Source: Pseudomonadota bacterium (GTDB lineage Bacteria > Pseudomonadota > Alphaproteobacteria > UBA2136 > JAPKEQ01). Taken from it: DNA of 64,000 nucleotides. Within the stretch, counting starts at the first letter, position 1, and every line of letters begins with the position of its first letter. The notes below the pieces were generated by a model. It saw nothing but the letters and a program-made list of their open reading frames with translations. It had not been told where the DNA came from and did no database searches. The stretch is from positions 166,598-230,597 of the forward strand of contig JAYZXF010000003.1 of assembly GCA_036141575.1 (NCBI GenBank), in the 5' to 3' direction. Shown here in pieces: positions 19,658 to 40,243 of the stretch. A program made the position numbers and the translations under genes.

Positions 19658-19662
19658 GGTAT

Positions 19663-20151: not shown

Positions 20152-20157
20152 AAAAAC

Positions 20158-20265
20158 TTACTTCTTGTAATGCTCGCCATGTTCCATTTTATGGCACTTA
20201 TTACAGTTATGTACGCAGCCAGTTAGGCTAACCACTGCAAGTGTAAGAACAAGTACTTTCATCAT
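20158..20265 (-). CDS. Unannotated 35-aa Cys/His-rich lipoprotein (MMKVLVLTLAVVSLTGCVHNCNKCHKMEHGEHYKK)
   Basis: Read by hand, since it is below the 60-aa track cutoff. aaggag RBS, lipobox LTGC, mature peptide CVHNCNKCHKMEHGEH. Sits between pdhC and the NUDIX gene. Confidence 0.45.
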   Translation of the reverse strand: MMKVLVLTLAVVSLTGCVHNCNKCHKMEHGEHYKK

Positions 20266-20279
20266 CAGATGCTATCTCC

Positions 20280-21581: not shown

Positions 21582-21586
21582 GAGGT

Positions 21587-22891: not shown

Positions 22892-23865
22892 TAGCCAAGC
22901 ATCTCCTTCACAGCGTCTTTAATTGTTTCCACTTGAGGAAGCGCCATATCTTCTAGGTTCTTCGCGTAAGCAAGCGGAACATCAGCAGCACTTAGGCGTT
23001 TAACTGGAGCGTCCAAGTCATCAAATGCATTGTCATTAATTGTTGCAATAATTTCACTCGCTACACCATAAGCAGGCCAACTCTCTTCCACAATAATGGC
23101 GCGGTTTGTTTTACGCACACTGTTAATAATTGTGCCTTGATCAAGTGGACGGATCGTACGCAGGTCAATCACCTCAGCGCTAATACCTTCTTTCTCAAGT
23201 TCTTTTGCAGCTTCAAGTGCTTTAATCGCCATAATTGAGTAACCAATTAGAGTCACATCTGTGCCCTCTTTCATCACGTTGGCTTTACCAATTGGTGTCA
23301 CGTGGTCACCTTCTGGCACGTCCCACTCACTTCCGTAGAGAAGCTCATTTTCAAGAACAACAACTGGGCTCTCATCACGAATCGCCGCTTTAATCAGGCC
23401 CTTTGCATCTGCTGCATTAGAGGGGCAAACCACCTTAAGGCCAGGAATATGACCGTACCAGCTTGCATAGTCTTGGCTGTGCTGCGCGCCTACACGTGAC
23501 GCCGCGCCGTTAGGACCACGGAATACGATTGGGCATTTCACCATACCACCACTCATGTAGAGCGTTTTAGCAGCACTGTTAATAATGTGGTCACAAGCAA
23601 GCATGGCAAAGTTCCATGTCATAAACTCAACAACAGGGCGAAGGCCTGCCATTGCAGCACCCGTAGCAATACCCGCAAAACCAAGCTCACTAATTGGCGT
23701 ATCAATCACGCGCTTATCACCAAACTCTTCTAGAAGACCTTGTGAACATTTGTAAGCACCCTGGTACTCAGCAACTTCTTCACCCATCAGAAATACGTCT
23801 TTATCTGTGCGCATTTCTTCTGCCATACCATCTCTTAGAGCATCACGATATGTTTGCATAACCAT
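22891..23865 (-). CDS. pdhB: Pyruvate dehydrogenase E1 beta subunit (no N-terminal lipoyl domain)
   Basis: Transketolase-like pyrimidine-binding and C-terminal domains. The start is taken at the internal Met that overlaps the pdhA stop. Confidence 0.85.
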
Positions 23866-24932
23866 TAGTCTTGCCCTCCGTTTTCTGGTAGCACATCTGT
23901 CCACATTTCATGTTGCTGAGGCTCTGATGCATTAATTGCGTTTTCTGTCGCAGTATTCACTGTTTCTTTAGAGGCTTTATCAAGTGCCTTAAGGTCAGCT
24001 TCTTTCACGCTGTACTCACTCATCAGCACTTCACCAAGCGCTTCAATAGGGTCGCGATCCTTCTTCACGCAATCTACTTCTTCACGTGTACGGTACTTTG
24101 CAGGGTCACTCATAGAGTGGCCACGGTAGCGGTACGTATCCATTTCAAGAAGGTACGGCCCTTTACCTGAACGTACATGCTTTACAGCTTCTGTTGTTGC
24201 AGCATGCACTTCAAAGAAGTCCATACCATCTACGCGCTTACCAGGAATCCCAAATGGCTCACCACGCTTGTAAAATTCACCTGCAGCACCACGCTTTGTT
24301 GACGTTCCCATTGCGTATTGGTTGTTCTCAACCACAAAAATCACAGGAAGATCCCACAGCGCTGCCATGTTCATTGTTTCGTAAACTTGTCCGCCGTTCA
24401 TCGCGCCGTCACCAATGTAAGCAAAAGATACACGGTCTTCACCGCGGTACTTGGCAGCAAACGCCAGACCAGCACCTAGAGGCACTTGAGCCGATACAAT
24501 ACCGTGCCCACCCCAGAAGTGTTTTTCAGGGTCAAACATGTGCATGCTACCGCCCTTACCTTTAGAGATACCTGTCTCTTTACCCATAAGCTCAGCCATC
24601 ACAGCTTCAGGCTCAACACCACATGCAATTGCATGAGCATGGCAGCGGTAAGATGTAATCTGATCATCGTCTGGGTTGCTGGCAGCCTTAATACCTGTAA
24701 TCACAGCCTCTTGACCGATGTACAGGTGGCAGAATCCACCAATTTTACCTTGCTGGTACATTGTTGCGGCTTTTTCCTCAAAACGACGCAGCAGCGACAT
24801 TTGGCTATAAACATCAAGAAGTTGATCTTTTGTGAATGGTTTTTTATTCACAAGTTTTACAGACTTCGTTGAGGTTTTCTTTGCAAGCTTTGCAGGCATG
24901 TATGTCTTATCCTTCTTTTGCAAGTTTCTCAA
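23865..24932 (-). CDS. pdhA: Pyruvate dehydrogenase E1 alpha subunit
   Basis: TPP-binding GDGA..NGG motif and [11 protein letters not shown] phosphorylation-loop-like motif. Length 355 aa; the start could instead be the second Met at 24899. Confidence 0.9.
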
Positions 24933-26532
24933 TCATCTCAAGAATACGTTCATCAAACTTTTCTTGCTCTTCACGCATCAGTTCAACAGCATCATGTGTT
25001 GAAAGCTCTTCACGGTAAGCGCGTGGTTTTGTAAGTGCACAGAACACATCACAAGCACCAAGCACACGTGAGAGCATGTTAATTTCAGCTTCTTCAGCAC
25101 CGTATGGGTAGCCAGAACCATCCATACGCTCGTACATTTGTTGAATCACAGGTGCAACAGGGAAATCAAAGTGGATATCCTCAAGCACGCGCATGGCATG
25201 CGGGATGTGCTGTTGAAGTTTGCCAAGCTCAGTCTTTGTGAGCTTACCTTTCTTTGTGAGTACCTCTTGAGGTACAAAGATCTTACCAACACCTGAAAGC
25301 AGCGCACTGTAAAAGAGTGTTGAACGCTCAGGAATGCTCATACCCATGGCGTTAGAAACACGCAGCGCCATGCGCGCCACACGCTCATGGTGACCTGATA
25401 GGTATGGGTCACGAATTTCAACAGCTTTCACAAGTGCCATCATAGCTTGCTCTTGAATACGGACACGCTGACGGTTACGCGTTGCCAGCAGGTGACCAAT
25501 CATCACAAACAGGAAAGCACTCACAAGAATCACAATCATGGTTGTCAGAAGGTAAATGGTACGCTTAAAGCCTGCCAGTGGAGCAAGTGCAATGTCAGAT
25601 AGGTTTTCATAGCCCAGTACAAACGGTGCATTTTCAACAGGTGTAAATGATGCAAACACAGGCTTGTTATCATTCAAGCTTGGCACAGGTCTAAATGTAG
25701 AAAGCTTCGCAACACCAACCATGTGATCAGATACTATTTTATCAGAAACAGGCTTTGCATCGCTCAGGTTATCAACGCTTACAAGCTCAAGACCTTCAGT
25801 ACCAACTTGGTAGAACCCCATACGCTCCCCCTCAGAAGAGAGCTTACCAAGGTCTAGAAGTTCCTTCAGATCATCCCCTACAATAAACTCACTCAGCAGA
25901 AGTGCTGTTACACTTTGACCGCTAGCAGCATCATCCAATGACAGGATTGGCTTCGTCACCGCAACAACAAGGCCAAAATCATTATCTTGTAGTGTTGAGT
26001 ACTGAACTTCAGCCTTTTCAAAGCTGTTCGCAATAATCTCTTTATACTGTGCCCCGACGGTACCTGCTTCGCGGCTACCCATCAGCACGCGACCATCACT
26101 TGCTACAACAAACGCACCGTTCAGACCGTTTTGTTCTGCATAGTCTGTCATGGCTTGTTGCATGTAAGGCAATTGTTGCAAGAGAGACTGCTCAACTGAA
26201 TCATTATTATCAGACAGGATCGCTTCTGAAGCGTAAAGTTGGATCAAGTCAGATGAAACAATATGATCCCCCACACGAGACAAACCTTCAAGCCATGCTT
26301 CCATCACTTCAGCTTTGGCTTCTACTTGAAGTTCAGCGCGTGTCATCACTTCTTTACGAACAACAAACTCACGCTCACCAATAATCATCATAGCGGCCCA
26401 TACACCAATAGAAATAAGAACCAGCATAACAAGCATACCCCAACGCATCAGTGCAGCCATTGGCATGTAAAACGCGTTTTTCTTTGGCATGCCTTTAAGT
26501 GTGATATCAACTTGTGATGATACCTGTGACAT
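24907..26532 (-). CDS. Two-TM membrane protein with a large periplasmic sensor region and a C-terminal degenerate HD-GYP domain
   Basis: TM1 near aa 30-50, ~290-aa periplasmic region, TM2 near aa 325-350, then HD-GYP-like ...GHHERVAR...ALLSGVGKIF...HIPHA...YERMDGSGYPYG...DVFCALT. Lies immediately downstream of the LapG-like protease gene in the same operon. Confidence 0.8.
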   Translation of the reverse strand: MSQVSSQVDITLKGMPKKNAFYMPMAALMRWGMLVMLVLISIGVWAAMMIIGEREFVVRKEVMTRAELQVEAKAEVMEAWLEGLSRVGDHIVSSDLIQLYASEAILSDNNDSVEQSLLQQLPYMQQAMTDYAEQNGLNGAFVVASDGRVLMGSREAGTVGAQYKEIIANSFEKAEVQYSTLQDNDFGLVVAVTKPILSLDDAASGQSVTALLLSEFIVGDDLKELLDLGKLSSEGERMGFYQVGTEGLELVSVDNLSDAKPVSDKIVSDHMVGVAKLSTFRPVPSLNDNKPVFASFTPVENAPFVLGYENLSDIALAPLAGFKRTIYLLTTMIVILVSAFLFVMIGHLLATRNRQRVRIQEQAMMALVKAVEIRDPYLSGHHERVARMALRVSNAMGMSIPERSTLFYSALLSGVGKIFVPQEVLTKKGKLTKTELGKLQQHIPHAMRVLEDIHFDFPVAPVIQQMYERMDGSGYPYGAEEAEINMLSRVLGACDVFCALTKPRAYREELSTHDAVELMREEQEKFDERILEMIEKLAKEG

Positions 26533-26544
26533 AGGGAGTCTCCT

Positions 26545-27201
26545 TTATTTTCGGCCCATTTCTCTTGGCACAATATGCGCCCATCTGGTTGTTTCATTCA
26601 CCGAATAATACGGCAAGTATTGCATAACTTGGCTGTCAGGTAAAACAACATCAAACAAACTATCCATTACATAGAAAGTATCTGCATATTTTACGACAAG
26701 CACTGCGTGCGCAATGTTACGCACAGTATCTTTTACCACAGCAAGGCGCATATCGTCAGGATTAACCCCCAAACGCTTAAGAGTGACATACTTAAAGATG
26801 GCATAATCCTCACAGTCACCAGAATTTGGCATAAACTCTTCAGGCGTTGCCCAGTAATCAGAAATACCGTAATTGGTAATATCCTCAATATAAGGCCACT
26901 GGTTAGCAAACTTATTCACTTCTTGAAGCATAGTTAGCGTATCCTCGCCCTGCAAAGAGCGGATACGACCACGCCATGTGCGCATTTCACCACTTGTACA
27001 TGTGAGAGAATCCTCAAAACACTGGGAAAAATCAGCCTCTTCTTCTTCAAGTTTCTTTAAAACCGTTGTCCATTTTGGGAGAGCGGCAAGGCTCTTAGCT
27101 CTAAACTCAATTGTACCAAATAGGCCATTGCCCGCAAAAGCAGGCAGAGCTCCACACAGGAGCCCTATTGTACATACACCAATCTGAATGGCTTTTCGCA
27201 C
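26545..27201 (-). CDS. lapG: LapG-like periplasmic cysteine protease (BTLCP / DUF920 family)
   Basis: Signal peptide and the GDCEDYAIFKYVTLKRLGV catalytic-Cys block. Downstream His (HAVLVV) and Asp candidates give a Cys-His-Asp triad. Length 218 aa. Confidence 0.8.
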   Translation of the reverse strand: MRKAIQIGVCTIGLLCGALPAFAGNGLFGTIEFRAKSLAALPKWTTVLKKLEEEEADFSQCFEDSLTCTSGEMRTWRGRIRSLQGEDTLTMLQEVNKFANQWPYIEDITNYGISDYWATPEEFMPNSGDCEDYAIFKYVTLKRLGVNPDDMRLAVVKDTVRNIAHAVLVVKYADTFYVMDSLFDVVLPDSQVMQYLPYYSVNETTRWAHIVPREMGRK

Positions 27202-27209
27202 GAATTTAC

Positions 27210-28682
27210 CTATCGTTCACTTAATGCGTTTTGACGCATCTTATTAAATGGTTTCATCATATAATTCCAAACGGTTTTCTTACCCGTTAAAATCTCAACT
27301 GTTGCCACCATACCTGGCATAATTGGGAGCGGCTTATCTTCTGTACCTAGATGGCCCTTATCTGTTCTCACCTGAATTTCATAAAACGGCTCACCTGTCT
27401 TTTCATCCTGCACCGTATCCGCTGCAATTTGAATTAGTTTTGCATCAAGGCTACCGTAAATAGAAGGGTCATATGCTGTAATCTTCACACGCGAATCTTG
27501 GTTCGGACGAAGGAAGGCTACATCCTGCGGACGAATACGCGCCTCAACCACCAAGTTCTCTTCAATCGGAACCACCTCAACAATGTCCACACCAGGCTGA
27601 ATCACCTGCCCTACAGTATTGACAAGCACACGCTTCACCGTACCATGCACAGGAGAGCGCACAGTTGTACGGTCTACCTGATCTTCTACAGCTTTTACGG
27701 CTTCCTGCAAACGAACAAGTTCATCTTTTTTCTCAGTCAGCTCTGTTAGAGACTCTGTACGGTTACGTGCAACCGCCTCTTCCACGCGCTGTTTCGCTTC
27801 TTTAACAGCCGCCTCTCCTCTTGGAACAGCAAGCTTAGCAGCTTCCATTTCACCACGAAGATCGTTCACCTGTCGCTTCAAACGCAGAATATCCACCTTA
27901 GATACAACGCCTTTAGCTTCTAAAGGAATTGTCATTTGCAGTTCTTCATTAGAAATTTGGTATGAACGACGAGACTGGCCTGCTTTTGTCTTTGCTTCAC
28001 GAAGCTCTTGTTCTTTTTGCTCAACCTGACGCGTTAGAATTTCAACAGCAGACTGAATCTCTTCTTTGCGAGAAAGATAAAGCGTATTTTCAGATTCAAT
28101 AATCTGTGGCGCCTCTTCTACAACTTCAGCAGGCCACTTAGGTTTCTCACCTTCAAGCTCAGCATTTAAACGTGCCACAGCCGCCATAAGTGTGTAAATA
28201 CGTGCGCGGCGCTCACCAAGCGTTGACGCAAACCCTGTGTCATCAATACGAATAAGAATATCGCCCTTTTGCACAATATCTCCATTCCCAACAAGAATCT
28301 CTTTAACAATACCACCCTCAAGGTTTTGTACTGTCTGTGTATCACCTGATGGAATCACCTTACCTTGGCCGCGCGTCACTTCATCAAGTTCTGCAAACAT
28401 CGCCCAAGCAATAAAGAAAACAAAAAATGCGACAATTGCCCAGAACAAACGGTTAGCAATGGGGTGCACACCACGCAGTGTCGCTTGACGCACATCATCC
28501 ATAAAGATGCCATCTTCCCAAGCTGCAGGGAAGAACCAGTTCAAGATACCGCGCCATGCCTTTTCAGGACGACCTGCAGGTTTAAGATCTCCGCCCAGCG
28601 TGCTGTTTTTTCTCTCTTTTCGAGAAAGCTTCTTTGGCTTATCGTCCTTCAAAGGTTCATCTGGTATGCGAGATGAGTACAT
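27210..28682 (-). CDS. lapC: Type I secretion membrane fusion protein (HlyD family)
   Basis: N-terminal TM, long coiled coils and a C-terminal beta-barrel/lipoyl-like HlyD domain. Length 490 aa. Confidence 0.9.
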   Translation of the reverse strand: MYSSRIPDEPLKDDKPKKLSRKERKNSTLGGDLKPAGRPEKAWRGILNWFFPAAWEDGIFMDDVRQATLRGVHPIANRLFWAIVAFFVFFIAWAMFAELDEVTRGQGKVIPSGDTQTVQNLEGGIVKEILVGNGDIVQKGDILIRIDDTGFASTLGERRARIYTLMAAVARLNAELEGEKPKWPAEVVEEAPQIIESENTLYLSRKEEIQSAVEILTRQVEQKEQELREAKTKAGQSRRSYQISNEELQMTIPLEAKGVVSKVDILRLKRQVNDLRGEMEAAKLAVPRGEAAVKEAKQRVEEAVARNRTESLTELTEKKDELVRLQEAVKAVEDQVDRTTVRSPVHGTVKRVLVNTVGQVIQPGVDIVEVVPIEENLVVEARIRPQDVAFLRPNQDSRVKITAYDPSIYGSLDAKLIQIAADTVQDEKTGEPFYEIQVRTDKGHLGTEDKPLPIMPGMVATVEILTGKKTVWNYMMKPFNKMRQNALSER

Positions 28683-28695
28683 TTGTTTTCTCTTC

Positions 28696-30897
28696 TTATT
28701 TCTTTAATGTCGTTTTGTTTTTACCAGACAGGCTCTTCAGCACGTCTTCTTTAGGCCCGTCCGCAAGAATACGACCATCTTCCATCACAATGACACGGTC
28801 CACAAGATCAAGCATTGTGTACTTGTGCGTCACAAGAACAACTGTCTTATCCTTAATCGCTTTCTTCAAATGGCCCAGAAGCTTCATTTCTGTACGGTTA
28901 TCCATTTCACTTGTTGGCTCATCAAGCAGAAGAATTGGAGGCTCTTTAAGAATTGCGCGCGCAAGAGAGACCGCCTGACGCTGACCACCAGACAAACTAT
29001 CACCACGTTCGCCCACTGGCATATCAAGGCCCATAGGGTGTTTGCTTGCAAATTCATTCACGCCACTCATTTCTACAGCGGCTTTCAGTTGCTCCTGAGT
29101 TGCATGCGGTGCGCTCAACATAATGTTATGGCGCAGCGTGCCACTAAATAGAATAATGTTTTGTGGCACGTAACCAATATTCTTACGTACTTCCACTGGG
29201 TCTACCTGACGAATCTCAAGATCATCAAACAGAATGCTCCCTTGCGTTGGGTTATAAAGGTTAAGCATCAGACGTAGGAGCGAACTCTTACCAGAACCTG
29301 TACGACCAATCACAGCCACCTTTTCACCCGGCTGAATCTTAAAGCTCATATCCTTCACACTCTCGAGTGGAGAGTTCGGGTAAACAAATGACACATCTTT
29401 AAACTCAACTTGGCCTGTTGCCTCGCCAAGGTAAACAAAGTTTTTACCATCTGGGCGTTCAACTTCCATATCCATAATGCCGTTCAATGTTTCAAGAGAC
29501 TGCATGGCTTGGTTATAGCGCGCATAAAGCGCAACAGCTTGGCTAAGTGGCGCCATTGTACGACCCGCAAGAAGTGTACAAGCCACAAGCGCACCCACAG
29601 ACATGTAACCGCCTTTAATCATAAACACACCAACAACCACAATACCGACTGTCACCATCTGCTGAATAAAGCCAGCAAAGTTTTGACCAATAGACGCAAG
29701 AAGACGCGTACGCTGACCAACACGAGCGACAGCACCAACTGATTGCTCCCAACGAGACTGCATCACACTCTGCATGTTCAGGCTTTTAATCGCTTCAAGG
29801 CCATTAATCGTCTCAACAAGGTGACCATGCTTTGCATCAAGGTCTTGCATCGCCTGTTGAATAATAGCCTTCATAGGAGACTGCACTGTAAAGCTTACAA
29901 ACAGAACAATTGGAATTGCAAATAAAGGAACTAGCGCGACCCAGCCACCAATAATGGCAATCACACCAATAAAGACAAAAATAAACGGTAGATCAATCAG
30001 CGTTGTGAGCGTTGCTGATGTAAAGAAATCTCTAAGAGATTCAAACTCACGCAGCTGGTTTGCAAAGGCACCACTTGATGAACCTTGCTTACCAAGACGA
30101 ATATTAAGAACTTGCTGATACAGTTGACCAGACAGTAAAATATCAGCCCCTCGCCCTGCTGTATCAATAAAGTAACCTCGCAGCACCTTTAATATAAAGT
30201 CAAACACGTAAGCTGTACCAATACCAAGCGCAAGAACAGTTAGTGTTTCCATTGCGTTGTTTGGTACCACGCGGTCATAAACGTTCATCACAAAGAGCGG
30301 TGAGACCACTGCAATTAAGTTAATCACCACAGCAGCAATGGCCACTTGGAAGTAAATCCAACGAAACTGCCAAAGCGTATCTCTAAACCAGCGTTCACCC
30401 GATCTAAATACGTCCGTCACAAAATCATGTACAGCTGTTGGGCGCGCCATAATCATTGTACCAGAGTACACAGGCGCAAAGTCTTCAAGGCTTGCAAAGC
30501 GCTTTTCTTCACCACTTACAGGGTTTACCAGTACAACACTACCGTGATCACCCATTTCTTTAAGCACAAACGCAGGGCCAACCTCGTCACCCTCACCCTT
30601 TAAGATCACAAGAGCTGGAAGCACATGACGTGAAAGCTCTTCAAGCTTTCTATCAATCACACGCGCGTTTAAACCAGCGCGCTTTGCAGCACGTACAAAC
30701 AAGAATGGCGTAAGCTTGTTATTTTGGAGAGGAAGTCCGACCGTGAGAGATTCCGCATTGAAAAGCTTATTATAATGCTTCACAAAATACATAAGTCCTG
30801 CCAGTAGATAATCTGGCGCTTGAACCTTTTCAGCTTCTTCTTGCTTCACATCAATAGAACCCAGAGCTTCTTGTTGCTCTAACGTAGCGTCTGTCAC
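28696..30897 (-). CDS. lapB: Type I secretion ABC transporter ATPase/permease with an N-terminal C39-like (Cys-less) domain
   Basis: The first ~150 aa have a peptidase-C39-like fold but no cysteine. Six-TM ABC domain, Walker A GRTGSGKSS, signature LSGGQRQ, Walker B ILLLDE. Length 733 aa. Confidence 0.9.
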   Translation of the reverse strand: MTDATLEQQEALGSIDVKQEEAEKVQAPDYLLAGLMYFVKHYNKLFNAESLTVGLPLQNNKLTPFLFVRAAKRAGLNARVIDRKLEELSRHVLPALVILKGEGDEVGPAFVLKEMGDHGSVVLVNPVSGEEKRFASLEDFAPVYSGTMIMARPTAVHDFVTDVFRSGERWFRDTLWQFRWIYFQVAIAAVVINLIAVVSPLFVMNVYDRVVPNNAMETLTVLALGIGTAYVFDFILKVLRGYFIDTAGRGADILLSGQLYQQVLNIRLGKQGSSSGAFANQLREFESLRDFFTSATLTTLIDLPFIFVFIGVIAIIGGWVALVPLFAIPIVLFVSFTVQSPMKAIIQQAMQDLDAKHGHLVETINGLEAIKSLNMQSVMQSRWEQSVGAVARVGQRTRLLASIGQNFAGFIQQMVTVGIVVVGVFMIKGGYMSVGALVACTLLAGRTMAPLSQAVALYARYNQAMQSLETLNGIMDMEVERPDGKNFVYLGEATGQVEFKDVSFVYPNSPLESVKDMSFKIQPGEKVAVIGRTGSGKSSLLRLMLNLYNPTQGSILFDDLEIRQVDPVEVRKNIGYVPQNIILFSGTLRHNIMLSAPHATQEQLKAAVEMSGVNEFASKHPMGLDMPVGERGDSLSGGQRQAVSLARAILKEPPILLLDEPTSEMDNRTEMKLLGHLKKAIKDKTVVLVTHKYTMLDLVDRVIVMEDGRILADGPKEDVLKSLSGKNKTTLKK

Positions 30898-31093
30898 GTG
30901 TCACCTAAACTTTTTTATTATTACTGGCTCATTATGACTCAACATATAAAAGAAGACCAGAAATTCATGACAGCTGCCCGTGACATAAGCATAAAACAAA
31001 CATAAAAGACACACTCTTAGATGTTAAGAACTGTATGGAATCTTTAAAAACACTTGTAAAGATTTAAGAGTTCCACTATTTAAGGCACAATAA

Positions 31094-31113
31094 GTTGTAG
31101 GTATTTATACAAC
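31094..31113. promoter_or_regulatory. Inverted repeat GTTGTA-N8-TACAAC upstream of the tolC RBS, in the divergent promoter region
   Basis: Perfect 6-bp arms in the lapB/tolC intergenic region. Confidence 0.25.
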
Positions 31114-31141
31114 TGCTTAAACGAGGTAAGAGAGAAAAAAA

Positions 31142-32467
31142 ATGAAATTTACAGTTAAAGCAATGCTTGCAGGTGCTGGTCTTATGATCATGAGCCCTGC
31201 TGGCTACACTGAAACTCTTGGCCAAGCTGTCCAGCTGGCTCTACAAAACCACCCAGATATTAAAATTGCAAAAAACCAGAAGCACTCTATTGAGCACGAA
31301 TGGCGCATTGCTAAAGCTGGCTACCTGCCAAGCCTAGACGTAGCAGCAGGCTACGGTGTTGAACGCAGCGAGAACAACACAACACGTAACCGTGCAGGCC
31401 GAAACGGTACAAATGGTGATGCACACCGTACACTGAACCGTTACGAGTCAAGCGTAACAGCGAGCCAAATGCTTTTTGATGGTTACGAAACAAGCAGCGA
31501 AATCTGCCAACAGAAAGAACGCTTCAACTCTGCACGTTACAACGTAATGGAAGTTGAAGAGACTGTTTCTCTTGCTGCTGTTGAAGCATACATTGAAGTT
31601 CTTCGTAACATGGAGCTTGTTGCTATCTCTAAAGATAACTACAACACGCACCTACGTTACCTGAAACAAATTAAACAACGCGCTGAAGGTGGCCGCGGTA
31701 ACATGGCAGACGTTCGTCAGGCCGACGGTCGTGTAGCTCTTATCCGTGCAAACCTACAAGCAGCTGAAGGTGACCTTGCTAACGCGAAGGCAAACTACCT
31801 AGAAGTTGTTGGTAAACTACCAGAAGGCGTGAGCCTGCCAACTCCTCCAGTTGAGGTTCTACCATCTACTATTGATGATGCAATCGCTCGCGCTATTGCA
31901 AACAACCCAGCTCTTGGTAGTGCACAGCACGACATTAAAGCAGCTAAAGCAGCGAAACAAACTGCTAAAGCAAGCTTCTACCCTCGTTTTGATGCTGAAC
32001 TAGAAGCATCACACGATCACAACCTAAGCGGCCAAAGCGAAAAAGGGACTGACCGTAACTACCAAGCCATGGTACGTATGCGTTACAACCTTTACAGCGG
32101 TGGTGCTGACCGTGCCCGTGTACGTGAGCGCGCAAGCCGTGTTCAAGAAGCCCGTGAATCTCTAGAAAGAGATCGCCGTCTCGTTGAAGAAGGCATGTAT
32201 GTTGCTTGGAACAACCTAGAAACAGCAAGAACGCGTATCCAACCACTTAGTCAACACGTGATGGCATCTGATGCAACACGTAAGGCTTACAGTGAGCAGT
32301 TTGATATTGGTCAGCGTAGCTTGCTTGACCTTCTCGACTCTGAGATTGAGTTCTACGGTGCACGTAGCGCACTTGTAAACGCTAAATACGCACTTGATTT
32401 TGCAGTGTACAACGTACTTGCACAATCAGGTGAGCTTGCTAACACTGTTGGTGGGCACCGCTCTTAA
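31142..32467 (+). CDS. lapE: TolC-family outer membrane channel of the T1SS
   Basis: Signal peptide, two OEP repeat halves. Length 441 aa. Transcribed divergently from the ABC/MFP operon. Confidence 0.85.
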   Translation: MKFTVKAMLAGAGLMIMSPAGYTETLGQAVQLALQNHPDIKIAKNQKHSIEHEWRIAKAGYLPSLDVAAGYGVERSENNTTRNRAGRNGTNGDAHRTLNRYESSVTASQMLFDGYETSSEICQQKERFNSARYNVMEVEETVSLAAVEAYIEVLRNMELVAISKDNYNTHLRYLKQIKQRAEGGRGNMADVRQADGRVALIRANLQAAEGDLANAKANYLEVVGKLPEGVSLPTPPVEVLPSTIDDAIARAIANNPALGSAQHDIKAAKAAKQTAKASFYPRFDAELEASHDHNLSGQSEKGTDRNYQAMVRMRYNLYSGGADRARVRERASRVQEARESLERDRRLVEEGMYVAWNNLETARTRIQPLSQHVMASDATRKAYSEQFDIGQRSLLDLLDSEIEFYGARSALVNAKYALDFAVYNVLAQSGELANTVGGHRS

Positions 32468-32486
32468 GCAGAGCATCTCTTACCTC

Positions 32487-32514
32487 AAAAAGGGCGGTTT
32501 ATCCGCCCTTTTTT
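32487..32514 (+). terminator. Rho-independent terminator after tolC
   Basis: aaaaagggcggTTTATccgccctttttt. Confidence 0.7.
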
Positions 32515-32749
32515 CTATGCCCTTAAATTGTCTACAATTTTTGTCAGTTAGATTGTCAGAGAAAATTATTTACCCACCCCACAAATATGTAGGGTGTGAT
32601 GAAGACGGTGGATTCACGGAAAAAATTATATTATTCAACGTTTTTATTTGTATACGGGACTTGAAATCTGTACAAATGCGCCTACATCATTTATACCGCC
32701 TTAAAACTTTGGCGGATAATGACAGTATTTTTTTGAGGAGGCCAATACA

Positions 32750-35700
32750 ATGTCAACGACACAAAACCAAGAGAATCAAGCGCTTGAAACAACTGAAACA
32801 GGCACAAAGCTCTTTGCCGGACTACCTGAAGAACAGGCTGCTGCGCAGACGAAAAATGTTCTGACAGTTTCTGCTCCGAAAGGAAACTCTAGCGAAGCAT
32901 ACACTGTTGAACCAGGCGATGTCATTAAACTGACAGGTTTTAATCCATCTGATGCAACTTTCAAAGTTGACGGTAACAACCTGATCATCTCTGTAGAGGG
33001 GCAACCTGATATTTACCTTCTTGATTTTGCAAAGCTTCAAGGCACAGATGCTGGTAACACAACATTTATCGAACTTACTGAAGGCGCAACAGTTGATGCA
33101 AACAGCCTCCTTGCACAGTTGACGCCAGAAGCTACAAACGGCAACGGTACTCAAGTGGCAGCCTCAGATGAAAACATTAACGAGATTGAGCCGGCAGCCG
33201 GTCCAGCCGCTGGTGCTGCTGGTGGTGCAGGTTTCACCCCTCCTCCAGTTGCAAATGATTCTTTCTCTGCCAATACAGTTAACGCCGAAGTGATCGGCGA
33301 TTTCCTCGTTGATAGCGAGTTTGGCCAAGCTGATGAACGCCTACTAGAAACACCTAACCGTGCTCCAGATGCTGTGGATGACAACGGCGGTAACGCTGAA
33401 GGTGATGCACACACAGTTAAAGAAGATGCTGTACCAAACACAGTTTCAGGCAACGTACTTGCCAACGATACAGACCCAGATGGTGATACGCTGAGTGTAG
33501 CAAACCCAGGGACTTACACACTGAACTACGGTACACTTACAATTAACGTAGACGGTACGTACACATACGCCCTAGACAACAGCAACCCAACTGTAAACGC
33601 TCTAGATGATGGTGACACGCTCACAGATTCATTTACATACCGCGCAACAGATGGTCAGCTTCAGTCTCCAGCAAACCTAAACATTCGTATCCTAGGTACA
33701 AATGATGGTCCTGAGCTAAACAATGATGTAGACCCTAACGACAATAGTCTTTCTATTAAAGAAGATGCAGTACCAAACTTCACATCTGGTAACGTACTTG
33801 ATAACGACGTTGACCCAGATGGCGATGTGCTCACGGTTGTAAACCCAGGCACGTACACCCTGAACTACGGTACACTTGTGATTAATGCTGACGGTACATA
33901 CACGTACACACTCGATAACAGCAACCCAACTGTAGACGCCCTAGACAACGGCGATACACTATCAGATAGCTTCACATATGAAGCGACTGATGGCGACCTG
34001 AACGATACAGCGGTTCTAACAATCACAATTCACGGTACAAATGACGCTCCTGCTCTTCAAGATGACGTAAACAGCATTTTTGAAAACGCAACACCTGACA
34101 CAGTAACAGGTAACGTACTTGCGAACGATACAGATGTTGAAGGTGATGCAATCACTGTTTCAAACCCTGGTATCTATGTTCTTAACTACGGTACACTTAC
34201 ACTGAATGGTGACGGCTCATACTCATACCAGCTTGATAACAGCAACCCTACTGTGAACAACATGAAAGCTGGCGATAGCATTCAAGATGCCTTCATTTAC
34301 CGCGCTACTGATGGTAAGGATAGCTCAACAGCGAATCTAACAATCACAATTCACGGCACAAATGACGGCCCAGTTGCAAACGATGATGTTGCAGCAACAG
34401 ACGAAGATACGCCGATTACAATTCCAGCAAGCACAATCCTTGCGAACGACTACGAGCTTGAAGGTGACACATTTAACATTACTGCTGTGAATGTAAGGTT
34501 TGGTGGCGGTACAGCCGTACTGAACGCAGATGGTAGCGTAACATACACACCACTGCATAACTATAACGGCCCTGCTCAGTTGGAATATACAATTACAGAT
34601 ACTGATGGCCTATCGGATACTGCCGTGATTGATATCAATGTGATTTCAATTAACGATGTACCGCTAGCAGAAGATGACAGCGCTGTGACTCATGAAGATG
34701 TGCCTGTACGCATTTCTAACGCTGAAATTCTGCGTAATGACTCTGACCCTGAAGGTGACGCACTCACAATTACAACGGTTCGCGTTGTATCTGGTGGTGG
34801 TAGTGCTATTCTTCAACCCAACGGTGACGTGGTTTACACACCTGCGCTAAACTACAATGGCCCTGCGGTTCTTGAGTACGTAGTAACGGATGGAAACGGC
34901 GACTTTGATAGTGCCTTCATTAACATTGATGTCCTTCCTGTAAACGATGCAATTTCAGCACTTGATGACTACGCTGAAACACCAGAAGACACTCCGATCA
35001 CAATTCCTTCAGATAATATTCTTGCGAACGATTACGATCCTGAAGGTGACCCGCTTACAATTACAGCAGTGAGCGTTGTATCAGGCGGAGGTAGTGTTAC
35101 CCTTAACGCTGACGGCAGTGTAACGTACACGCCAGCGCCAAACTACAGCGGCCCTGCGGTTCTTGAGTACACAGTTGATGACGGCAATGGCAGTACAGAT
35201 ACTGCTTTGATCAACATCACAGTTACACCAGAGAATGATCCAGATGCAGTTGATGACTTCGCAACAACACGAGAAGACACAACAATTGTAATCCCGAATG
35301 CAACAATCCTTGCAAACGATGTGGATGATATGGGTCTTGCTCTTACAATTACAGAAGTACGCCTTGTAAGCGGCGGCGGTAGCGTAACGCTACTCGCAAA
35401 CGGTGATGTATCTTACACACCAGCGCCAAACTACAATGGCCCAGTTGTTCTTGAGTACACAATTCAAGATCCAAACGGTAACGAAGACAGTGCAAACATC
35501 TACATTGCAGTCACACCTGTGAACGACGGCCCTGTTGCTGTTGATGACTTTGCTGTGATGAATGAAGATTCTGTTCTTGTCATTCCAGAAGGCACCCTAC
35601 TGGCCAATGATACTGACCCAGAGGGCGACCCTCTTACAGTAACTCATGTCACTGTTGTAAGCGGTGGCGGCACAGCGACTGTAGATGCTTCAGGTAACGT

Positions 35701-38700
35701 AACATACGTACCAGCCCTCAACTACAACGGCCCTGTTGTTCTTGAATACACAATTAACGACGGCAACGGCGGTACTGATACTGCGCTTGTTAACATTGAC
35801 GTTCTGCCTGTAAACGATGCGCCAGTGGCAAACGATGACGCTGCAGCAACAGATGAAGACACGCCAATCACGATTTCAAACGCTGATATCCTATCAAATG
35901 ACTTTGATGTAGATGGCGATGTGATCACAATTACTGGCGTACGCATGGTAACAGGCCAAGGTACAGCGGTACTCAACGCAGACGGTAGCGTAACTTACAC
36001 GCCTACTGCCAATTACCACGGCCCTGCTGAAATTGAGTACACAATTGAAGATGAGCACGGTGCAACGGATACAGCAATTATCCGCGTAACAGTAAGATCT
36101 GTAAATGATGGTCCACAGGCAAACGATGATGCCTTCACAACGCCAGAAGATACAGCAATTACAATGACATCTGCTCAGATCCTATCAAACGATACGGACC
36201 CTGAAGGCGATCCTCTATCAATCACAAGCGTGATTGTAGTAAGCGGTGGCGGTACAGCGGTACTGAATGCTGATGGTAGCGTAACGTACACACCAGCGGC
36301 TGACTACAACGGCCCTGCGGTTCTTGAGTACGTTATGACTGATGGCACAGCTTCTGATAGTGCCTTCATCAACATTAACGTAACGCCTGTTAATGATGCG
36401 CCTGATGCAAACGATGATAGCTTCACAACTGCTGAAGATACTGCACTGACAATTCCAGCTGCAAACATCCTTGCAAACGACACAGACCCAGATGGTGACA
36501 CACTCACAATTACTGGCGTAAGCGTTCTTTCAGGTGGTGGTACAGCGGTACTAAACGCTGATGGTAGCGTAACTTACACGCCAGCAGCTGATTACCACGG
36601 CCCTGCGGTTCTTGAGTACAGCATCTCTGATGGTAACGGTGGTACAGATACAGCACGTATCAATATCACAGTAACGCCTGAGAACGACCCTGATGCAGTT
36701 GATGACTTCACTAGCACTAATGAAGACACAACTGTAATCATCCCGAACGCAACAATCCTTGCGAACGATGTGGATGACATGGGCATGACACTCACAATTA
36801 CCAATGTACGCGTTGTAAGCGGCGGCGGTACAGTACAGCTCCTAGCAAACGGTGATGTATCTTACACCCCTGCTCAAGGTTACAACGGCTCAGCAACGCT
36901 TGAGTACACAATCACAGACCCGGATGGCAACACTGATAGTGCAAACATCTTTGTGGCAATCAACCCTGTGAACGATGGCCCAACAGCTGTAAACGACGTA
37001 GCAGTCATGAACGAAGACACTGTTCTTGTGATTCCTGAAGGCACACTGCTTGCTAATGACAGTGACCCTGACGGTGACCCACTGAACGTAACAGGTGTAA
37101 CTGTTGTAAGCGGTGGCGGTACAGCAACAATTGATTCTGCAGGTAACGTAACGTACGTACCAGCCCTCAACTACAACGGTCCAGTTGTCCTTGAGTACAG
37201 CATCTCTGATGGTAACGGCGGTACAGATACGGCGCTTGTCAACATTACTGTAAACCCAGTCAATGATGATCCAAACGCTCGTAACGATAACTACACAACT
37301 GCCGAAGACACATCTGTTGGCCTAGACCTTCTAGCGAACGATACAGATGTAGATGGTGACACACTAACAATTACACACATTGCTGGTGTAGCCCTAACAG
37401 GTGGCGCTCAGTCAATTGATGTAGGTAACGGTCGCGTAGAAATTGCTGCAAACGGTTCTATGCGCTTCCACCCTGATGCAAACTGGAACGGTACTGAAAC
37501 ATTCAACTACCAAGTTTCAGATGGTAACGGTGGTACAGACACTGCAACAGTTCGTGTAAACGTAGACGCTCGTAACGATGGCCCTGATGCCCGTAACGAT
37601 AACTACACAACAAACGAAGATACGTCAGTGAACCTGAACCTTCTGGCAAACGATACTGACCCAGATGGCGATACGCTCACAATTACACATATTGATGGTG
37701 TAGCCCTAACAGGTAACGCGCAAACAATTGATGTGGGTAACGGTCGCGTAATCATTGCGTCTAACGGCACAATGCGCTTCCAACCGGATGCCAGCTGGAA
37801 TGGAACTGAGGCCTTCAGCTACCAGATCTCTGATGGCAACGGTGGCAGCGATACTGCAACTGTACGTGTAACAGTGAGAGCTGTAAACGACGGTCCAGAT
37901 GCTCGCAACGATAACTACACAACAGATGAAGATGTCTCAGTGAACCTGAACCTTCTGGCAAATGATACTGACCCTGAAGGCGACACACTCCGCATCACGC
38001 ACATTGATGGCACAGCCCTAACAGGTAATGCACAAACAATTGATGTGGGTAATGGCCGTGTCATTATCTCATCAACAGGTGCTATGCGCTTTGAGCCAGA
38101 TGCTAACTGGAATGGTATTGAAACATTCAACTACACAATTACAGACGGTAATGGTGGCACAGACACTGCCCGCGTAACTGTTGAAGTATGTGCAGTAAAC
38201 GACGGCCCAGATGCTCGCAACGATAACTACACAACAGATGAAGACACTGCGGTGAATATCAATCTGCTTGCGAACGACACAGATATCGATGGCGATACAC
38301 TCCGCATCACACATATTGCTGGCACAGCCCTAACTGGCGGCGCACAAACAATTGATGTGGGTAACGGTCGTGTCATTATCTCGTCAACGGGTGCTATGCG
38401 CTTCCAACCGGATAACGGCTGGTTTGGTACTGAAACATTCAACTACCGCATTACAGATGGTAACGGTGGCTCTGATACAGCAACAGTAAGAGTTGTTGTA
38501 CGCGAAGGCAACAACGGCCCTGATGCGAAGAATGATAGCTACACAACAAACGAAGATACGTCAGTAAACCTGAACCTTCTAGCGAATGATACTGACCCTG
38601 ACGGCGATACGCTTCGTATCACTCATATTGAAGGTGTAAGACTCACAGGCAGTGCACAAACAATTGATGTGGGTAACGGTCGTGTCATCATTACTTCTGC

Positions 38701-40243
38701 TGGTGCTATGCGCTTCCAGCCTGATGCAAACTGGAATGGTACTGAAACATTTAGCTACCGAATCTCTGATGGTAATGGGGGTGTAGACTCTGCACGCGTA
38801 ACTATTAATGTTAAACCAGTAAACGATGGCCCTGATGCGAAGAATGATAGCTTCACAATCAATGAAGACCAAACCCTTTACCTCAACGGTGGATCAAAGC
38901 TTCTTGCGAATGACCGTGATATTGATGGTGATAGTCTAAATATTACGCACATCAACGGTGTAAGACTGACTGGCGGCAACCAAAACATTGATGTAGGACG
39001 CGGTACAGTGGTTGTTGGCAGTGATGGCAGCATGCAGTTCCGTCCAGATCGTAACTGGAACGGCACAGAGACATTCACTTACAGAATCTCTGATGGCAAC
39101 GGCGGCAGTGATACAGCAACTGTAACAGTCAAAGTAAGACCAGTAAATGATGGTCCGAACGCACGTAACGACTCTGTATCTGTAAACGAGAACCAGTCTA
39201 TTGCGATTAGCGTTCTAAACAACGATACAGACCCTGATGGCGATGCATTACACATCACACGTATTGTAAGTGGTCCAAACTTTGGTAGCGCTTACGTATC
39301 AGGCGGACGTATCATTTACACAGCAGGCTCTGTAACATCAGATCGCACGGTTACTTTCAGATATGAAATCTCTGATGGTCACGGTGGTACTGATATTGCA
39401 ACCGTAACAGTAAACGTACGTAACACTTGGAACCCTGGCGGTGACGGCGGCGGTGACGGCGGCGGTGATTGCCCACTTATCATTGACCTAGACGGTGACG
39501 GCCTTGAGCTTATCGCTCTAGAAGACTCAAACGCTATGTTTGATGTTGATGGTGACGGACAAGCAGAGCACACAGCATGGGCTTCATCTGATGATGGTAT
39601 CCTTGCGATGGACTGGAACGGTGACGGCATCATTAATGATGTAACTGAAGTCTTTGGTAACAGCCTACAAGACGGTTTCACTGAGCTTATTGAGCTTGAT
39701 GACAACGGTGATGGCGTCATTAACCAAGATGACAGCCTGTTCTCTAGCCTACAAGTATGGCAGGACTACAACGGTGACGGTATCTCTGATGCTGGTGAGC
39801 TGAGCAGCCTTGCTGACCACGGTATCACGTCACTTGGTGCAGTTGGCAATGAAAACCCAATGGTGATCAACGGCCAAACAATTACGCACACAAGTAGTGT
39901 TGAGTACGCTGATGGAACATCACGTGACATCTACAGTGTATGGTTCCAGAACGAGAACACAAGTTCAAGTGACCATAACTACGATGAGATTGACCTTACA
40001 GGTGACTCTCTAGTTGGCTTCAGCGTATCACTTGACGATGTTCTGAGTACGGCTTCAAACACGCTTGTGATCTCTGGTGATGATGGTGATGCGGTGACAA
40101 CAACTGAGTTCACTGAACGTAACGATAACGTAACGATTGGTGACCAGACATACGCGTCATTCACAGACAGCAACCACACAGGAACAATCCTGATTGAGCT
40201 TGGCCTGACTGTAAACGGCGAGACAATGACAGACGTTGTTTAA
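32750..40243 (+). CDS. lapA: Giant LapA-like type I secreted repeat adhesin, 2497 aa
   Basis: Strong gaggagg RBS. N-terminal beta-rich region followed by the EPAAGPAAGAAGGAG tract. More than 20 tandem ~100-aa VCBS/cadherin-like repeats (..ANDTDPDGD.L....V..G.....DG.V.YTP..NYNGP....Y...DG.G..D.A...I.V.PVND.P). C-terminal Asp/Gly-rich Ca-binding region (GGDGGGDGGGD, DLDGDG, DVDGDG, DDNGDG) and a non-cleaved C-terminal secretion signal. Confidence 0.85.
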   Translation: MSTTQNQENQALETTETGTKLFAGLPEEQAAAQTKNVLTVSAPKGNSSEAYTVEPGDVIKLTGFNPSDATFKVDGNNLIISVEGQPDIYLLDFAKLQGTDAGNTTFIELTEGATVDANSLLAQLTPEATNGNGTQVAASDENINEIEPAAGPAAGAAGGAGFTPPPVANDSFSANTVNAEVIGDFLVDSEFGQADERLLETPNRAPDAVDDNGGNAEGDAHTVKEDAVPNTVSGNVLANDTDPDGDTLSVANPGTYTLNYGTLTINVDGTYTYALDNSNPTVNALDDGDTLTDSFTYRATDGQLQSPANLNIRILGTNDGPELNNDVDPNDNSLSIKEDAVPNFTSGNVLDNDVDPDGDVLTVVNPGTYTLNYGTLVINADGTYTYTLDNSNPTVDALDNGDTLSDSFTYEATDGDLNDTAVLTITIHGTNDAPALQDDVNSIFENATPDTVTGNVLANDTDVEGDAITVSNPGIYVLNYGTLTLNGDGSYSYQLDNSNPTVNNMKAGDSIQDAFIYRATDGKDSSTANLTITIHGTNDGPVANDDVAATDEDTPITIPASTILANDYELEGDTFNITAVNVRFGGGTAVLNADGSVTYTPLHNYNGPAQLEYTITDTDGLSDTAVIDINVISINDVPLAEDDSAVTHEDVPVRISNAEILRNDSDPEGDALTITTVRVVSGGGSAILQPNGDVVYTPALNYNGPAVLEYVVTDGNGDFDSAFINIDVLPVNDAISALDDYAETPEDTPITIPSDNILANDYDPEGDPLTITAVSVVSGGGSVTLNADGSVTYTPAPNYSGPAVLEYTVDDGNGSTDTALINITVTPENDPDAVDDFATTREDTTIVIPNATILANDVDDMGLALTITEVRLVSGGGSVTLLANGDVSYTPAPNYNGPVVLEYTIQDPNGNEDSANIYIAVTPVNDGPVAVDDFAVMNEDSVLVIPEGTLLANDTDPEGDPLTVTHVTVVSGGGTATVDASGNVTYVPALNYNGPVVLEYTINDGNGGTDTALVNIDVLPVNDAPVANDDAAATDEDTPITISNADILSNDFDVDGDVITITGVRMVTGQGTAVLNADGSVTYTPTANYHGPAEIEYTIEDEHGATDTAIIRVTVRSVNDGPQANDDAFTTPEDTAITMTSAQILSNDTDPEGDPLSITSVIVVSGGGTAVLNADGSVTYTPAADYNGPAVLEYVMTDGTASDSAFININVTPVNDAPDANDDSFTTAEDTALTIPAANILANDTDPDGDTLTITGVSVLSGGGTAVLNADGSVTYTPAADYHGPAVLEYSISDGNGGTDTARINITVTPENDPDAVDDFTSTNEDTTVIIPNATILANDVDDMGMTLTITNVRVVSGGGTVQLLANGDVSYTPAQGYNGSATLEYTITDPDGNTDSANIFVAINPVNDGPTAVNDVAVMNEDTVLVIPEGTLLANDSDPDGDPLNVTGVTVVSGGGTATIDSAGNVTYVPALNYNGPVVLEYSISDGNGGTDTALVNITVNPVNDDPNARNDNYTTAEDTSVGLDLLANDTDVDGDTLTITHIAGVALTGGAQSIDVGNGRVEIAANGSMRFHPDANWNGTETFNYQVSDGNGGTDTATVRVNVDARNDGPDARNDNYTTNEDTSVNLNLLANDTDPDGDTLTITHIDGVALTGNAQTIDVGNGRVIIASNGTMRFQPDASWNGTEAFSYQISDGNGGSDTATVRVTVRAVNDGPDARNDNYTTDEDVSVNLNLLANDTDPEGDTLRITHIDGTALTGNAQTIDVGNGRVIISSTGAMRFEPDANWNGIETFNYTITDGNGGTDTARVTVEVCAVNDGPDARNDNYTTDEDTAVNINLLANDTDIDGDTLRITHIAGTALTGGAQTIDVGNGRVIISSTGAMRFQPDNGWFGTETFNYRITDGNGGSDTATVRVVVREGNNGPDAKNDSYTTNEDTSVNLNLLANDTDPDGDTLRITHIEGVRLTGSAQTIDVGNGRVIITSAGAMRFQPDANWNGTETFSYRISDGNGGVDSARVTINVKPVNDGPDAKNDSFTINEDQTLYLNGGSKLLANDRDIDGDSLNITHINGVRLTGGNQNIDVGRGTVVVGSDGSMQFRPDRNWNGTETFTYRISDGNGGSDTATVTVKVRPVNDGPNARNDSVSVNENQSIAISVLNNDTDPDGDALHITRIVSGPNFGSAYVSGGRIIYTAGSVTSDRTVTFRYEISDGHGGTDIATVTVNVRNTWNPGGDGGGDGGGDCPLIIDLDGDGLELIALEDSNAMFDVDGDGQAEHTAWASSDDGILAMDWNGDGIINDVTEVFGNSLQDGFTELIELDDNGDGVINQDDSLFSSLQVWQDYNGDGISDAGELSSLADHGITSLGAVGNENPMVINGQTITHTSSVEYADGTSRDIYSVWFQNENTSSSDHNYDEIDLTGDSLVGFSVSLDDVLSTASNTLVISGDDGDAVTTTEFTERNDNVTIGDQTYASFTDSNHTGTILIELGLTVNGETMTDVV

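Follow-up and report, generated by a model that had tools for sequence, protein, structure and literature searches.

A DvhD homolog without a PAS domain in a Lap-like adhesin locus of an uncultured Pseudomonadota bacterium

The Lap system of Pseudomonas fluorescens (LapD, LapG, LapA and LapBCE, with the orthologs CdgS9 and BpfD and the LapD proteins of Vibrio and Bordetella) combines a type I secretion system (T1SS) of the C39-like-domain (CLD) type with a giant adhesin that is retained on the cell. A calcium-dependent cysteine protease of the bacterial transglutaminase-like type (BTLCP) cuts this adhesin at a di-alanine, and a degenerate inner-membrane receptor for cyclic di-GMP (c-di-GMP) is encoded beside the protease. 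In Desulfovibrio (Nitratidesulfovibrio) vulgaris Hildenborough the corresponding pair is DvhD/DvhG (also named BfsD/BfsG, or DVU1020/DVU1019), found with the adhesin DvhA and a T1SS. The Kd of DvhD for c-di-GMP is 322 nM, and c-di-GMP-dependent control of DvhG was obtained in a reconstituted system (Karbelkar et al. PNAS 2024, PMC10990149). Structures of the HD-GYP domain (9RBZ), the PAS/HD-GYP portion (9RC0) and the periplasmic dCache domain (9RC2) of DvhD have been published (Font et al. Nat Commun 2026, PMC13090378). Here we analysed a 64-kb window (64,000 nucleotides of contig JAYZXF010000003.1, the whole stretch of DNA under study) from the metagenome-assembled genome (MAG) of an uncultured Pseudomonadota bacterium. 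It holds a six-gene locus at 24907-40243, in which an ATP-binding cassette (ABC) transporter, a membrane fusion protein (MFP), a BTLCP and an HD-GYP protein are encoded in one string on the minus strand, and a TolC-family channel and a giant adhesin are encoded divergently on the plus strand.

We conclude that this locus is probably a DvhDG-type (Lap-like) system for adhesin display and release, with a catalytically inactive HD-GYP protein as its c-di-GMP receptor. A sequence-only reading of the DNA had claimed a Lap-type gene set (CLD-type ABC transporter, MFP, TolC, BTLCP and giant repeat adhesin), with an HD-GYP gene co-operonic with the BTLCP gene and directly 3' of it. Pfam and NCBIfam recovered all six genes, and the BTLCP and HD-GYP genes lie on the same strand with a gap of 12 nt, which argues for their co-transcription. 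The locus shares the logic of the Lap system outlined above. The same reading had also proposed an undescribed variant, and here it went too far: DvhD/DvhG is already published (PMC10990149, PMC13090378), and the best matches of the window protein in PDB are DvhD entries. A dead HD-GYP protein that replaces LapD as the gate of a LapG-like protease is on record for Desulfovibrio, and the locus opens no new category. What is new relative to the two papers is the missing cytoplasmic PAS domain, together with a whole clade that has this shorter architecture.

Homology of the receptor to DvhD

Hydropathy analysis of the 541-aa HD-GYP protein gave two peaks, at residues 33-51 and 332-350, which leaves a stretch of about 280 residues in between. 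This bears out the proposed order of transmembrane helix, periplasmic domain, transmembrane helix and HD-GYP domain. Pfam matched HD_5 strongly (E 2.5e-36, residues 367-529) and dCache_1 weakly (E 0.0027); the only other match was to the generic HD model, at 13.3 bits against a threshold of 22. When PDB was searched with the single receptor sequence, the best matches were 9RBZ (E 8.4e-36) and 9RC0 (E 1.1e-35), and the periplasmic part matched 9RC2 (E 9.8e-7). With a family profile built from 26 members, the values reached E 1.1e-61 for 9RBZ and E 2.5e-27 for 9RC2, the latter over profile positions 59-313, which is nearly the whole periplasmic domain. In the PDB sequence search, the DvhD entries outscored every active HD-GYP enzyme and every other Cache protein by a wide margin. 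The active phosphodiesterases PmGH (4MCW/4MDZ), PA4781 (4R8Z) and V-cGAP3 (5Z7C) and the degenerate Bd1817 (3TM8), which share the fold and the GYP motif, came out at E 1.7e-23 to 1.4e-4. Unlike these proteins, the window receptor has four metal ligands replaced and is fused to a membrane-spanning dCache portion.

The structural comparison pointed the same way. The AlphaFold2 (AF2) model of the receptor had a predicted local distance difference test score (pLDDT) of 85. In Foldseek it matched 9RBZ with a template modelling (TM) score of 0.82-0.84 and a root-mean-square deviation of 2.3-2.9 Å, and 9RC2 with 0.84 and 3.2 Å; the next dCache protein, KinD, scored 0.60. The dCache domain carries the conserved motifs DLIQLYASEA (residues 95-104) and QLPYMQQ (residues 120-126), and the periplasmic motifs common to the family and DvhD are DL(F/V)RLFAAE, QLP(Y/L)M, PLR..G.LVLD..PIFA and PL..EG.R. 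The 541-aa protein is a DvhD homolog in both functional domains. It belongs to the same dCache subfamily, has the same two transmembrane helices and, like DvhD, is encoded directly downstream of a BTLCP gene within a locus for a T1SS and a giant adhesin.

Membership in the LapD family was rejected. The LapD output domain has a GWxQ loop with W125 (PMC4359373). The receptor has no GWxQ motif and no HAMP, GGDEF or EAL domain; LapD_MoxY_N gave no match to it at E<=10, and no LapD output domain appeared among its 50 best Foldseek matches. Unlike LapD, to which it is unrelated, the window receptor has a degenerate HD-GYP domain as its nucleotide site and not an EAL domain.

The residues of the HD-GYP domain were mapped in the numbering of the DvhD paper, and 11 of 11 named residues agreed with a count of the aligned sequence. 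The HD dyad is replaced by S413-G414 and the HH pair by M466-Y467, with the GYP motif kept as G474-Y475-P476. The same positions read SQ and MN in DvhD, and the four metal ligands are lost in both proteins. With these substitutions DvhD bound no metal and did not hydrolyse c-di-GMP in vitro with any metal tried (PMC13090378). By contrast with the metal ligands, most of the ligand contacts are kept. Six of the eight canonical c-di-GMP contacts are identical (DvhD Y523, L577, Y621, R650, Y652 and E668, which are Y377, L431, Y475, R504, Y506 and E522 in the receptor); M646 has become L500, and the remaining one, K582, is weighed below. An intact HD dyad was found in none of the 78 classifiable proteins that carry a DvhD-type periplasmic domain in an exhaustive HMMER search. 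The protein is best read as a non-catalytic receptor, with c-di-GMP binding suggested by the kept contacts and inactivity suggested by the DvhD assays. It had been proposed that an HD-GYP "receptor or enzyme" couples c-di-GMP to a LapG-like protease. Because the HD and HH motifs are replaced as in catalytically dead DvhD, this narrows to a receptor, which the homology of both domains to DvhD and the synteny support.

A shorter architecture without the PAS domain

The receptor differs from DvhD most visibly between the membrane and the HD-GYP domain. Its alignment with 9RC0 starts at chain residue 118, past the PAS domain, and the centre of the second transmembrane helix (TM2) is 34 aa from the RDPYL motif. 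The secondary structure assigned to the AF2 model by DSSP shows one unbroken helix over residues 317-374, formed by the end of dCache, TM2 and the HD-GYP stalk. Unlike DvhD, the receptor thus lacks the cytoplasmic PAS domain, reads SG and not SQ at the HD position, does not keep K582 and R569, and comes from an uncultured Pseudomonadota MAG and not from the Desulfovibrionales.

A scan of one genome per species yielded 80 homologous loci. In 25 of them (L001-L025) the PAS domain is missing: the distance from TM2 to RDPYL is 33-46 aa (measurable by motif search in 20 of the 25), and the HD position reads SG, SA, AA, AG or SS. The other 55 (L026-L080) have the PAS domain, with a distance of 174-183 aa where measurable and nearly always SQ at the HD position, as in DvhD. 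The PAS-less loci come from uncultured MAGs labelled Alphaproteobacteria, Magnetococcales or Proteobacteria, and the closest relatives of the window receptor (L001 and L002, 77% identity) are among them. The PAS-type loci belong mostly to the Kiloniellaceae (Kiloniella, Pelagibius; Alphaproteobacteria). These Kiloniellaceae/Rhodospirillales homologs resemble the window locus in that TolC is divergent from the ABC-MFP-BTLCP-receptor string, the HD-GYP domain is degenerate and the periplasmic domain is of the same family. Unlike the window receptor, they carry a PAS insert of about 140 aa and the SQ motif, and a rough neighbour-joining tree places them beside DvhD and not in the PAS-less clade.

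With the periplasmic domain alone as query, the exhaustive HMMER search found 127 proteins among 1.84 billion representatives. By a crude hydropathy rule, 56 of the 78 classifiable proteins were of PAS type and 22 were PAS-less. In the neighbour-joining tree of the HD-GYP domain, which carries no support values, 45 of 48 PAS-less sequences formed one block and DvhD stood among the PAS-type sequences. The PAS-less form is a near-monophyletic group in uncultured Pseudomonadota MAGs. It is not mentioned in the text of PMC10990149 or PMC13090378, and neither text names the Alphaproteobacteria. The DvhD authors picked homologs at 80-85% coverage of DvhD (PMC13090378), and a homolog set chosen with this requirement would leave out the PAS-less proteins.

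These comparisons place the DvhDG design beyond the sulfate reducers, since both marine Alphaproteobacteria (Kiloniellaceae) and uncultured Pseudomonadota MAGs commonly carry it. Part of this wider spread may already be visible in the published distribution by class (PMC13090378, Figure 9b). The periplasmic domain, which wherever classifiable occurs only with a degenerate HD-GYP domain and almost always beside a BTLCP gene, offers a reliable genomic marker for adhesin control of the DvhDG type. The PAS-less clade (22 of 78 representatives, 25 species-level genomes) is also a natural experiment on the parts of DvhD that transmembrane signalling requires. Tentatively, and with somewhat more doubt than confidence, we suggest that it may represent a naturally minimal inside-out c-di-GMP receptor, in which the stalk of a dead HD-GYP domain is a direct extension of TM2 and its splaying on nucleotide binding would be passed to the dCache domain, and by way of it to the protease, without a PAS or HAMP relay. 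If this were true, the PAS domain of DvhD would be dispensable for the switch, and the clade would provide a compact full-length target for work on outward transmembrane nucleotide signalling.

Two observations on the scanned genomes may be added. Several MAG records (L004, L017, L023, L068, L071 and L080) are labelled Pseudomonadales, Pseudomonadaceae, Acidimicrobiia, Halopseudomonas or Vicinamibacteria and have loci of alphaproteobacterial type, a sign of mis-binning or wrong labels, or perhaps of a locus that was transferred horizontally. In a Kiloniellaceae locus (L027), the DvhD-like gene is followed about 1 kb downstream by a second, short HD-GYP-like open reading frame (ORF) at 11674-12294 (207 aa, E 1e-36).

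Protease, adhesin and a model of their control

The claim of a LapG-like BTLCP with a GDCEDYAI catalytic block was borne out by a Peptidase_C93 match, with the block at residues 128-135. The catalytic triad is C130-H165-D180, and D129 and E131 are the calcium-binding residues. In PDB the protein matched LapG of P. fluorescens (4U65_E, E 6e-21) and of Legionella pneumophila (4FGO, E 2.5e-18), with the C, H and D of the triad and D129/E131 in register. Homologous to LapG as it is, it scored 97.1 bits against the NCBIfam equivalog cutoff of 320, and we call it LapG-like and not a LapG equivalog. Its matches to the BTLCPs encoded in DvhD-type loci are far closer (E 1e-44 to 1e-119) than the one to LapG of P. 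fluorescens. Its N-terminus looks like a signal peptide (AFA followed by G, residues 21-24), as in most DvhG orthologs; unlike D. vulgaris DvhG, it has no transmembrane anchor and no long linker.

The link between receptor and protease is very specific. Where the upstream sequence is long enough to tell, the receptor gene directly follows a BTLCP gene in 21 of 23 loci of the PAS-less class and in 46 of 49 of the PAS type, or 67 of 72 together. ABC transporter, MFP and BTLCP genes all lie upstream of the receptor gene in 18 of 19 PAS-less and 33 of 37 PAS-type loci. Among the exceptions to this synteny, the PAS-less loci L004 (3120-4790) and L024 (9863-11404) have no upstream BTLCP gene despite 3-10 kb of flanking sequence. 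L069 has a rearranged order, with TolC first and then receptor, ABC transporter, MFP and BTLCP.

The adhesin offers a cleavage site of the expected form. The published consensus for recognition by LapG and DvhG takes in a targeting helix together with a DP-like motif and [T/A/P]AAG, which is cut between the alanines. A di-alanine motif had been claimed for the adhesin, and PAAG indeed occurs near its N-terminus at residues 148 and 152; these are the only [T/A/P]AAG motifs in its 2,497 residues. For comparison we took the giant proteins encoded by the gene after TolC in 15 related PAS-less loci. All 15 have (E/Q)PAAG preceded by (D/E/Q)(I/V) at the same alignment position. The site fits the consensus, and DvhA likewise has an N-terminal [T/A/P]AAG site; we take it as the predicted site of BTLCP cleavage. 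The claim of a retention-module-like region fared less evenly. Ahead of the PAAG motif, the N-termini of the 15 related adhesins share a beta-rich block (AY.V.PG..I.L...F...G.NL.I...G...LLDF) and, after it, a short LL.AL segment that looks helical, which suggests a putative retention domain and targeting helix. No Pfam or NCBIfam retention module matched the adhesin N-terminus, a PDB sequence search with it gave a chance match (E 0.33), and a homolog search returned one protein. Its AF2 model (residues 1-200, from a two-sequence alignment) had a pLDDT of 37 and was not used.

The rest of the adhesin consists largely of 20 Big_9/cadherin-like repeats in Pfam; unlike DvhA, it has no serralysin-like and no von Willebrand factor (vWF) domains. 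A motif count over its 2,497 residues gave zero GGxGxD nonapeptides of the repeats-in-toxin (RTX) type. The C-terminal 300 residues (39341-40243) hold several DxDGDG and DxNGDG calcium-binding-like motifs and a weak BapA_N-like match (E 0.018). Because these motifs stand in place of RTX repeats, the putative T1SS secretion signal is atypical for a Lap-type substrate.

We infer from published work on DvhD and LapD how these parts might work together, namely c-di-GMP binding, the direction of regulation, the contact between receptor and protease and cleavage at PAAG. The ABC/MFP/TolC T1SS would export the 2,497-aa adhesin, whose N-terminal domain would plug the outer-membrane channel and so keep the protein on the cell. 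At high cytoplasmic c-di-GMP, the dimer of dead HD-GYP domains would bind the nucleotide and its N-terminal stalk helices would splay, as c-di-GMP splays those of DvhD (PMC13090378). Since the stalk helices are extensions of TM2 without an intervening PAS domain, the movement would pass straight through the membrane to the dCache domain. The dCache domain would then restrain the BTLCP, and the adhesin would stay on the cell. The contact is probably made by the conserved alpha1'-like helix at residues 95-109; the DvhD authors model the broken alpha1' helix as the DvhG contact (PMC13090378). At low c-di-GMP the BTLCP would be freed to cut EPA/AGP, and the adhesin would be shed.

Several points weigh against this DvhDG-type interpretation. 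Only 36% of the residues of the HD-GYP domain, and 21% of those of the dCache domain, are identical between the receptor and DvhD. DvhD K582, a phosphodiester contact, is L436 in the receptor; the position is R in 17 of the 26 family members, so the subgroup of the window deviates here. Of the bridging-site residues, P567 persists as P421 and K520 has become R374, but R569 is replaced by E423 at a position that varies across the family. The PAS domain contributes to the DvhD dimer interface (PMC13090378), and its absence from the window receptor means that dimerisation and signal transmission may differ from DvhD. Even for Desulfovibrio itself, the mode of DvhG restraint by DvhD is yet to be established (PMC13090378). 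The retention domain of the adhesin is putative, with an AF2 model of low confidence. Our view covers 64 kb of the genome. The loss of K582 would alter the phosphate contacts, and the receptor might then answer another nucleotide, such as 3'3'-cGAMP. We consider this very unlikely: E668, which forms the hydrogen bond to the guanine amino group proposed to give base specificity, is kept as E522, both base-clamping residues are kept, and DvhD in solution is reported to favour c-di-GMP as its ligand. An active phosphodiesterase, lowering c-di-GMP locally or cleaving another cyclic dinucleotide with an indirect effect on the adhesin, is a candidate that we rejected as highly improbable. It would account for the strong HD_5 match, for the kept GYP motif, for four putative metal ligands (E372, H381, H442 and D495) that are invariant in the family, and for V-cGAP3, a cGAMP phosphodiesterase, being the nearest enzyme by sequence (5Z7C, E 1.7e-23). 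It conflicts with the replacement of the HD dyad and the HH pair at the very positions where DvhD, inactive with every metal tried, has lost them, with the sub-threshold score of the generic HD model and with the loss of the HD and HH motifs throughout the family.

The two remaining alternatives question the link to the protease. The true partner of the BTLCP could be a canonical LapD from another part of the genome, with the HD-GYP gene an unrelated neighbour. The limited view of the genome, 64 kb on a contig that runs to 234,670 bp, leaves room for this, a near-identical copy is known on a 1.26-Mb contig, and the BTLCP does align with P. fluorescens LapG. There is little chance of it, however, given that the adjacency of BTLCP and receptor genes holds in two architectural classes and many genera, that the receptor lacks the GWxQ loop, that the BTLCP scores far under the LapG equivalog cutoff and is closer to the BTLCPs of DvhD-type loci, and that the two genes are probably co-transcribed. 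The receptor might instead be mainly an outside-in sensor, whose dCache domain binds a small extracellular ligand and whose degenerate HD-GYP domain is an output or scaffold, for example for a diguanylate cyclase; its place beside the protease gene would in that case be a matter of co-regulation and not of direct control. Ligand sensing is typical of dCache domains, and Foldseek matched the receptor to the dCache domains of chemoreceptors and kinases at E values of about 1e-6 to 1e-5. The DvhD authors could not exclude a periplasmic ligand, and LapD signals both ways (PMC5231407). This alternative is unlikely as a replacement for the DvhDG-type interpretation, with which it is compatible as an additional input. 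The periplasmic domain is rare and specialised, is fused to a degenerate HD-GYP domain wherever classifiable and nearly always lies beside a BTLCP gene. Its most conserved motifs are common to DvhD, and DL.RLFA.E lies on the broken alpha1' helix modelled as the DvhG contact.

Gene layout and neighbouring genes

The coordinates of the locus are collected in Table 1. On the minus strand, 13, 8 and 12 nt lie between successive genes of the locus. The N-terminus of the ABC transporter is C39-like (Peptidase_C39, E 7.9e-8), and its residues 1-180 contain no cysteine, for which reason we read it as an inactive C39-like domain. With a CLD-type ABC transporter, an MFP and a TolC protein, each above its NCBIfam cutoff, the secretion genes form a LapBCE-type T1SS. 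The claimed absence of GGDEF and EAL domains from the 64-kb window held in Pfam scans of 38 ORFs, which are all 39 non-overlapping ones with 90 aa or more except the 107-aa ORF at 2938-3261. A promoter scan of the divergent region gave one match (31027-30999, minus strand), a number not above the shuffled expectation. In Rfam no family reached its gathering threshold at any point of the window, and upstream of the adhesin and T1SS genes there was no c-di-GMP riboswitch.

Table 1. Features of the adhesin locus, in window coordinates
Feature	Position	Strand	Basis
HD-GYP receptor gene, 541 aa	24907..26532	-	Pfam HD_5; DvhD matches in PDB; AF2; Foldseek
Stalk helix and degenerate HD-GYP domain, aa 351-541	24910..25482	-	9RBZ alignment; residue mapping
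TM2, aa 332-350, within the continuous predicted helix aa 317-374	25483..25539	-	Hydropathy; DSSP of AF2 model
Periplasmic DvhD-type dCache domain, about aa 52-331	25540..26379	-	Profile vs 9RC2; Foldseek
BTLCP/Peptidase_C93 protease (DvhG/LapG-like), 218 aa	26545..27201	-	Pfam Peptidase_C93, E 4e-19
T1SS membrane fusion protein, HlyD-type, LapC-like	27210..28682	-	TIGR01843, 388.6 bits vs cutoff 208.7; Pfam HlyD_3
T1SS ABC transporter, LapB/LssB type	28696..30897	-	TIGR03375, 889.9 bits vs cutoff 693.1
Divergent intergenic region, AT-rich, presumed promoters for both arms	30898..31141		Sequence reading
TolC-family outer-membrane channel, LapE-like	31142..32467	+	TIGR01844, 334.6 bits vs cutoff 225; Pfam OEP, E 4e-57
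Giant adhesin, 2,497 aa	32750..40243	+	Pfam; translation; motif counts
Putative periplasmic retention domain and targeting helix, about aa 36-125	32855..33124	+	Conservation
Predicted BTLCP cleavage site, tandem PAAG, E147-P-A-A-G-P-A-A-G155	33188..33214	+	Motif and conservation

After the TolC stop, in the 282-nt gap before the adhesin gene, several Rfam small RNA models overlap below threshold at 32453-32600 (suhB/mmgR, E 0.078; sraA, SraG and tpke11, E 0.35-0.58). They probably mark a terminator-like hairpin, and if it is real, TolC and the adhesin may be separate transcripts. Right after the adhesin gene, an ORF of 329 aa (40400-41389, plus strand) has no Pfam or NCBIfam match; the C-terminal half of its product is long, Pro/Glu-rich and then Lys-rich, and of low complexity. 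Further on, a secreted-type giant protein of 3,030 aa (43422-52514, plus strand) has 16 Big_9/cadherin-like repeats, two DUF4114 domains, 19 GGxGxD RTX nonapeptides and an acidic C-terminus, and, unlike the adhesin, it has RTX-like repeats already within its first 300 residues. We set it aside as a candidate substrate: it has no N-terminal [T/A/P]AAG, its single one lying at residue 1381, and it is probably no substrate of the BTLCP. A second T1SS is not visible in the window.

On the other side of the locus, directly downstream of the receptor gene, a 2-oxoacid dehydrogenase run on the minus strand (18254-24932) encodes E1 alpha, E1 beta, a DAO-family FAD oxidoreductase, E2, a NUDIX protein and E3. 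The longest E1-alpha ORF, from a TTG start, overlaps the 3' end of the receptor gene by 26 nt, with no convincing terminator between the two. At 14837-18042 lie the genes for a cytoplasmic PAS-GAF-PAS-PAS histidine kinase (790 aa, minus strand) and, divergently, for a stand-alone receiver-domain protein (133 aa); these are the sole other signalling genes near the locus, and neither product makes or breaks c-di-GMP. Close to the start of the window, an ORF at 590-1477 (minus strand) carries DUF2497, which would fit an alphaproteobacterial origin of the MAG, as this domain is largely restricted to Alphaproteobacteria.

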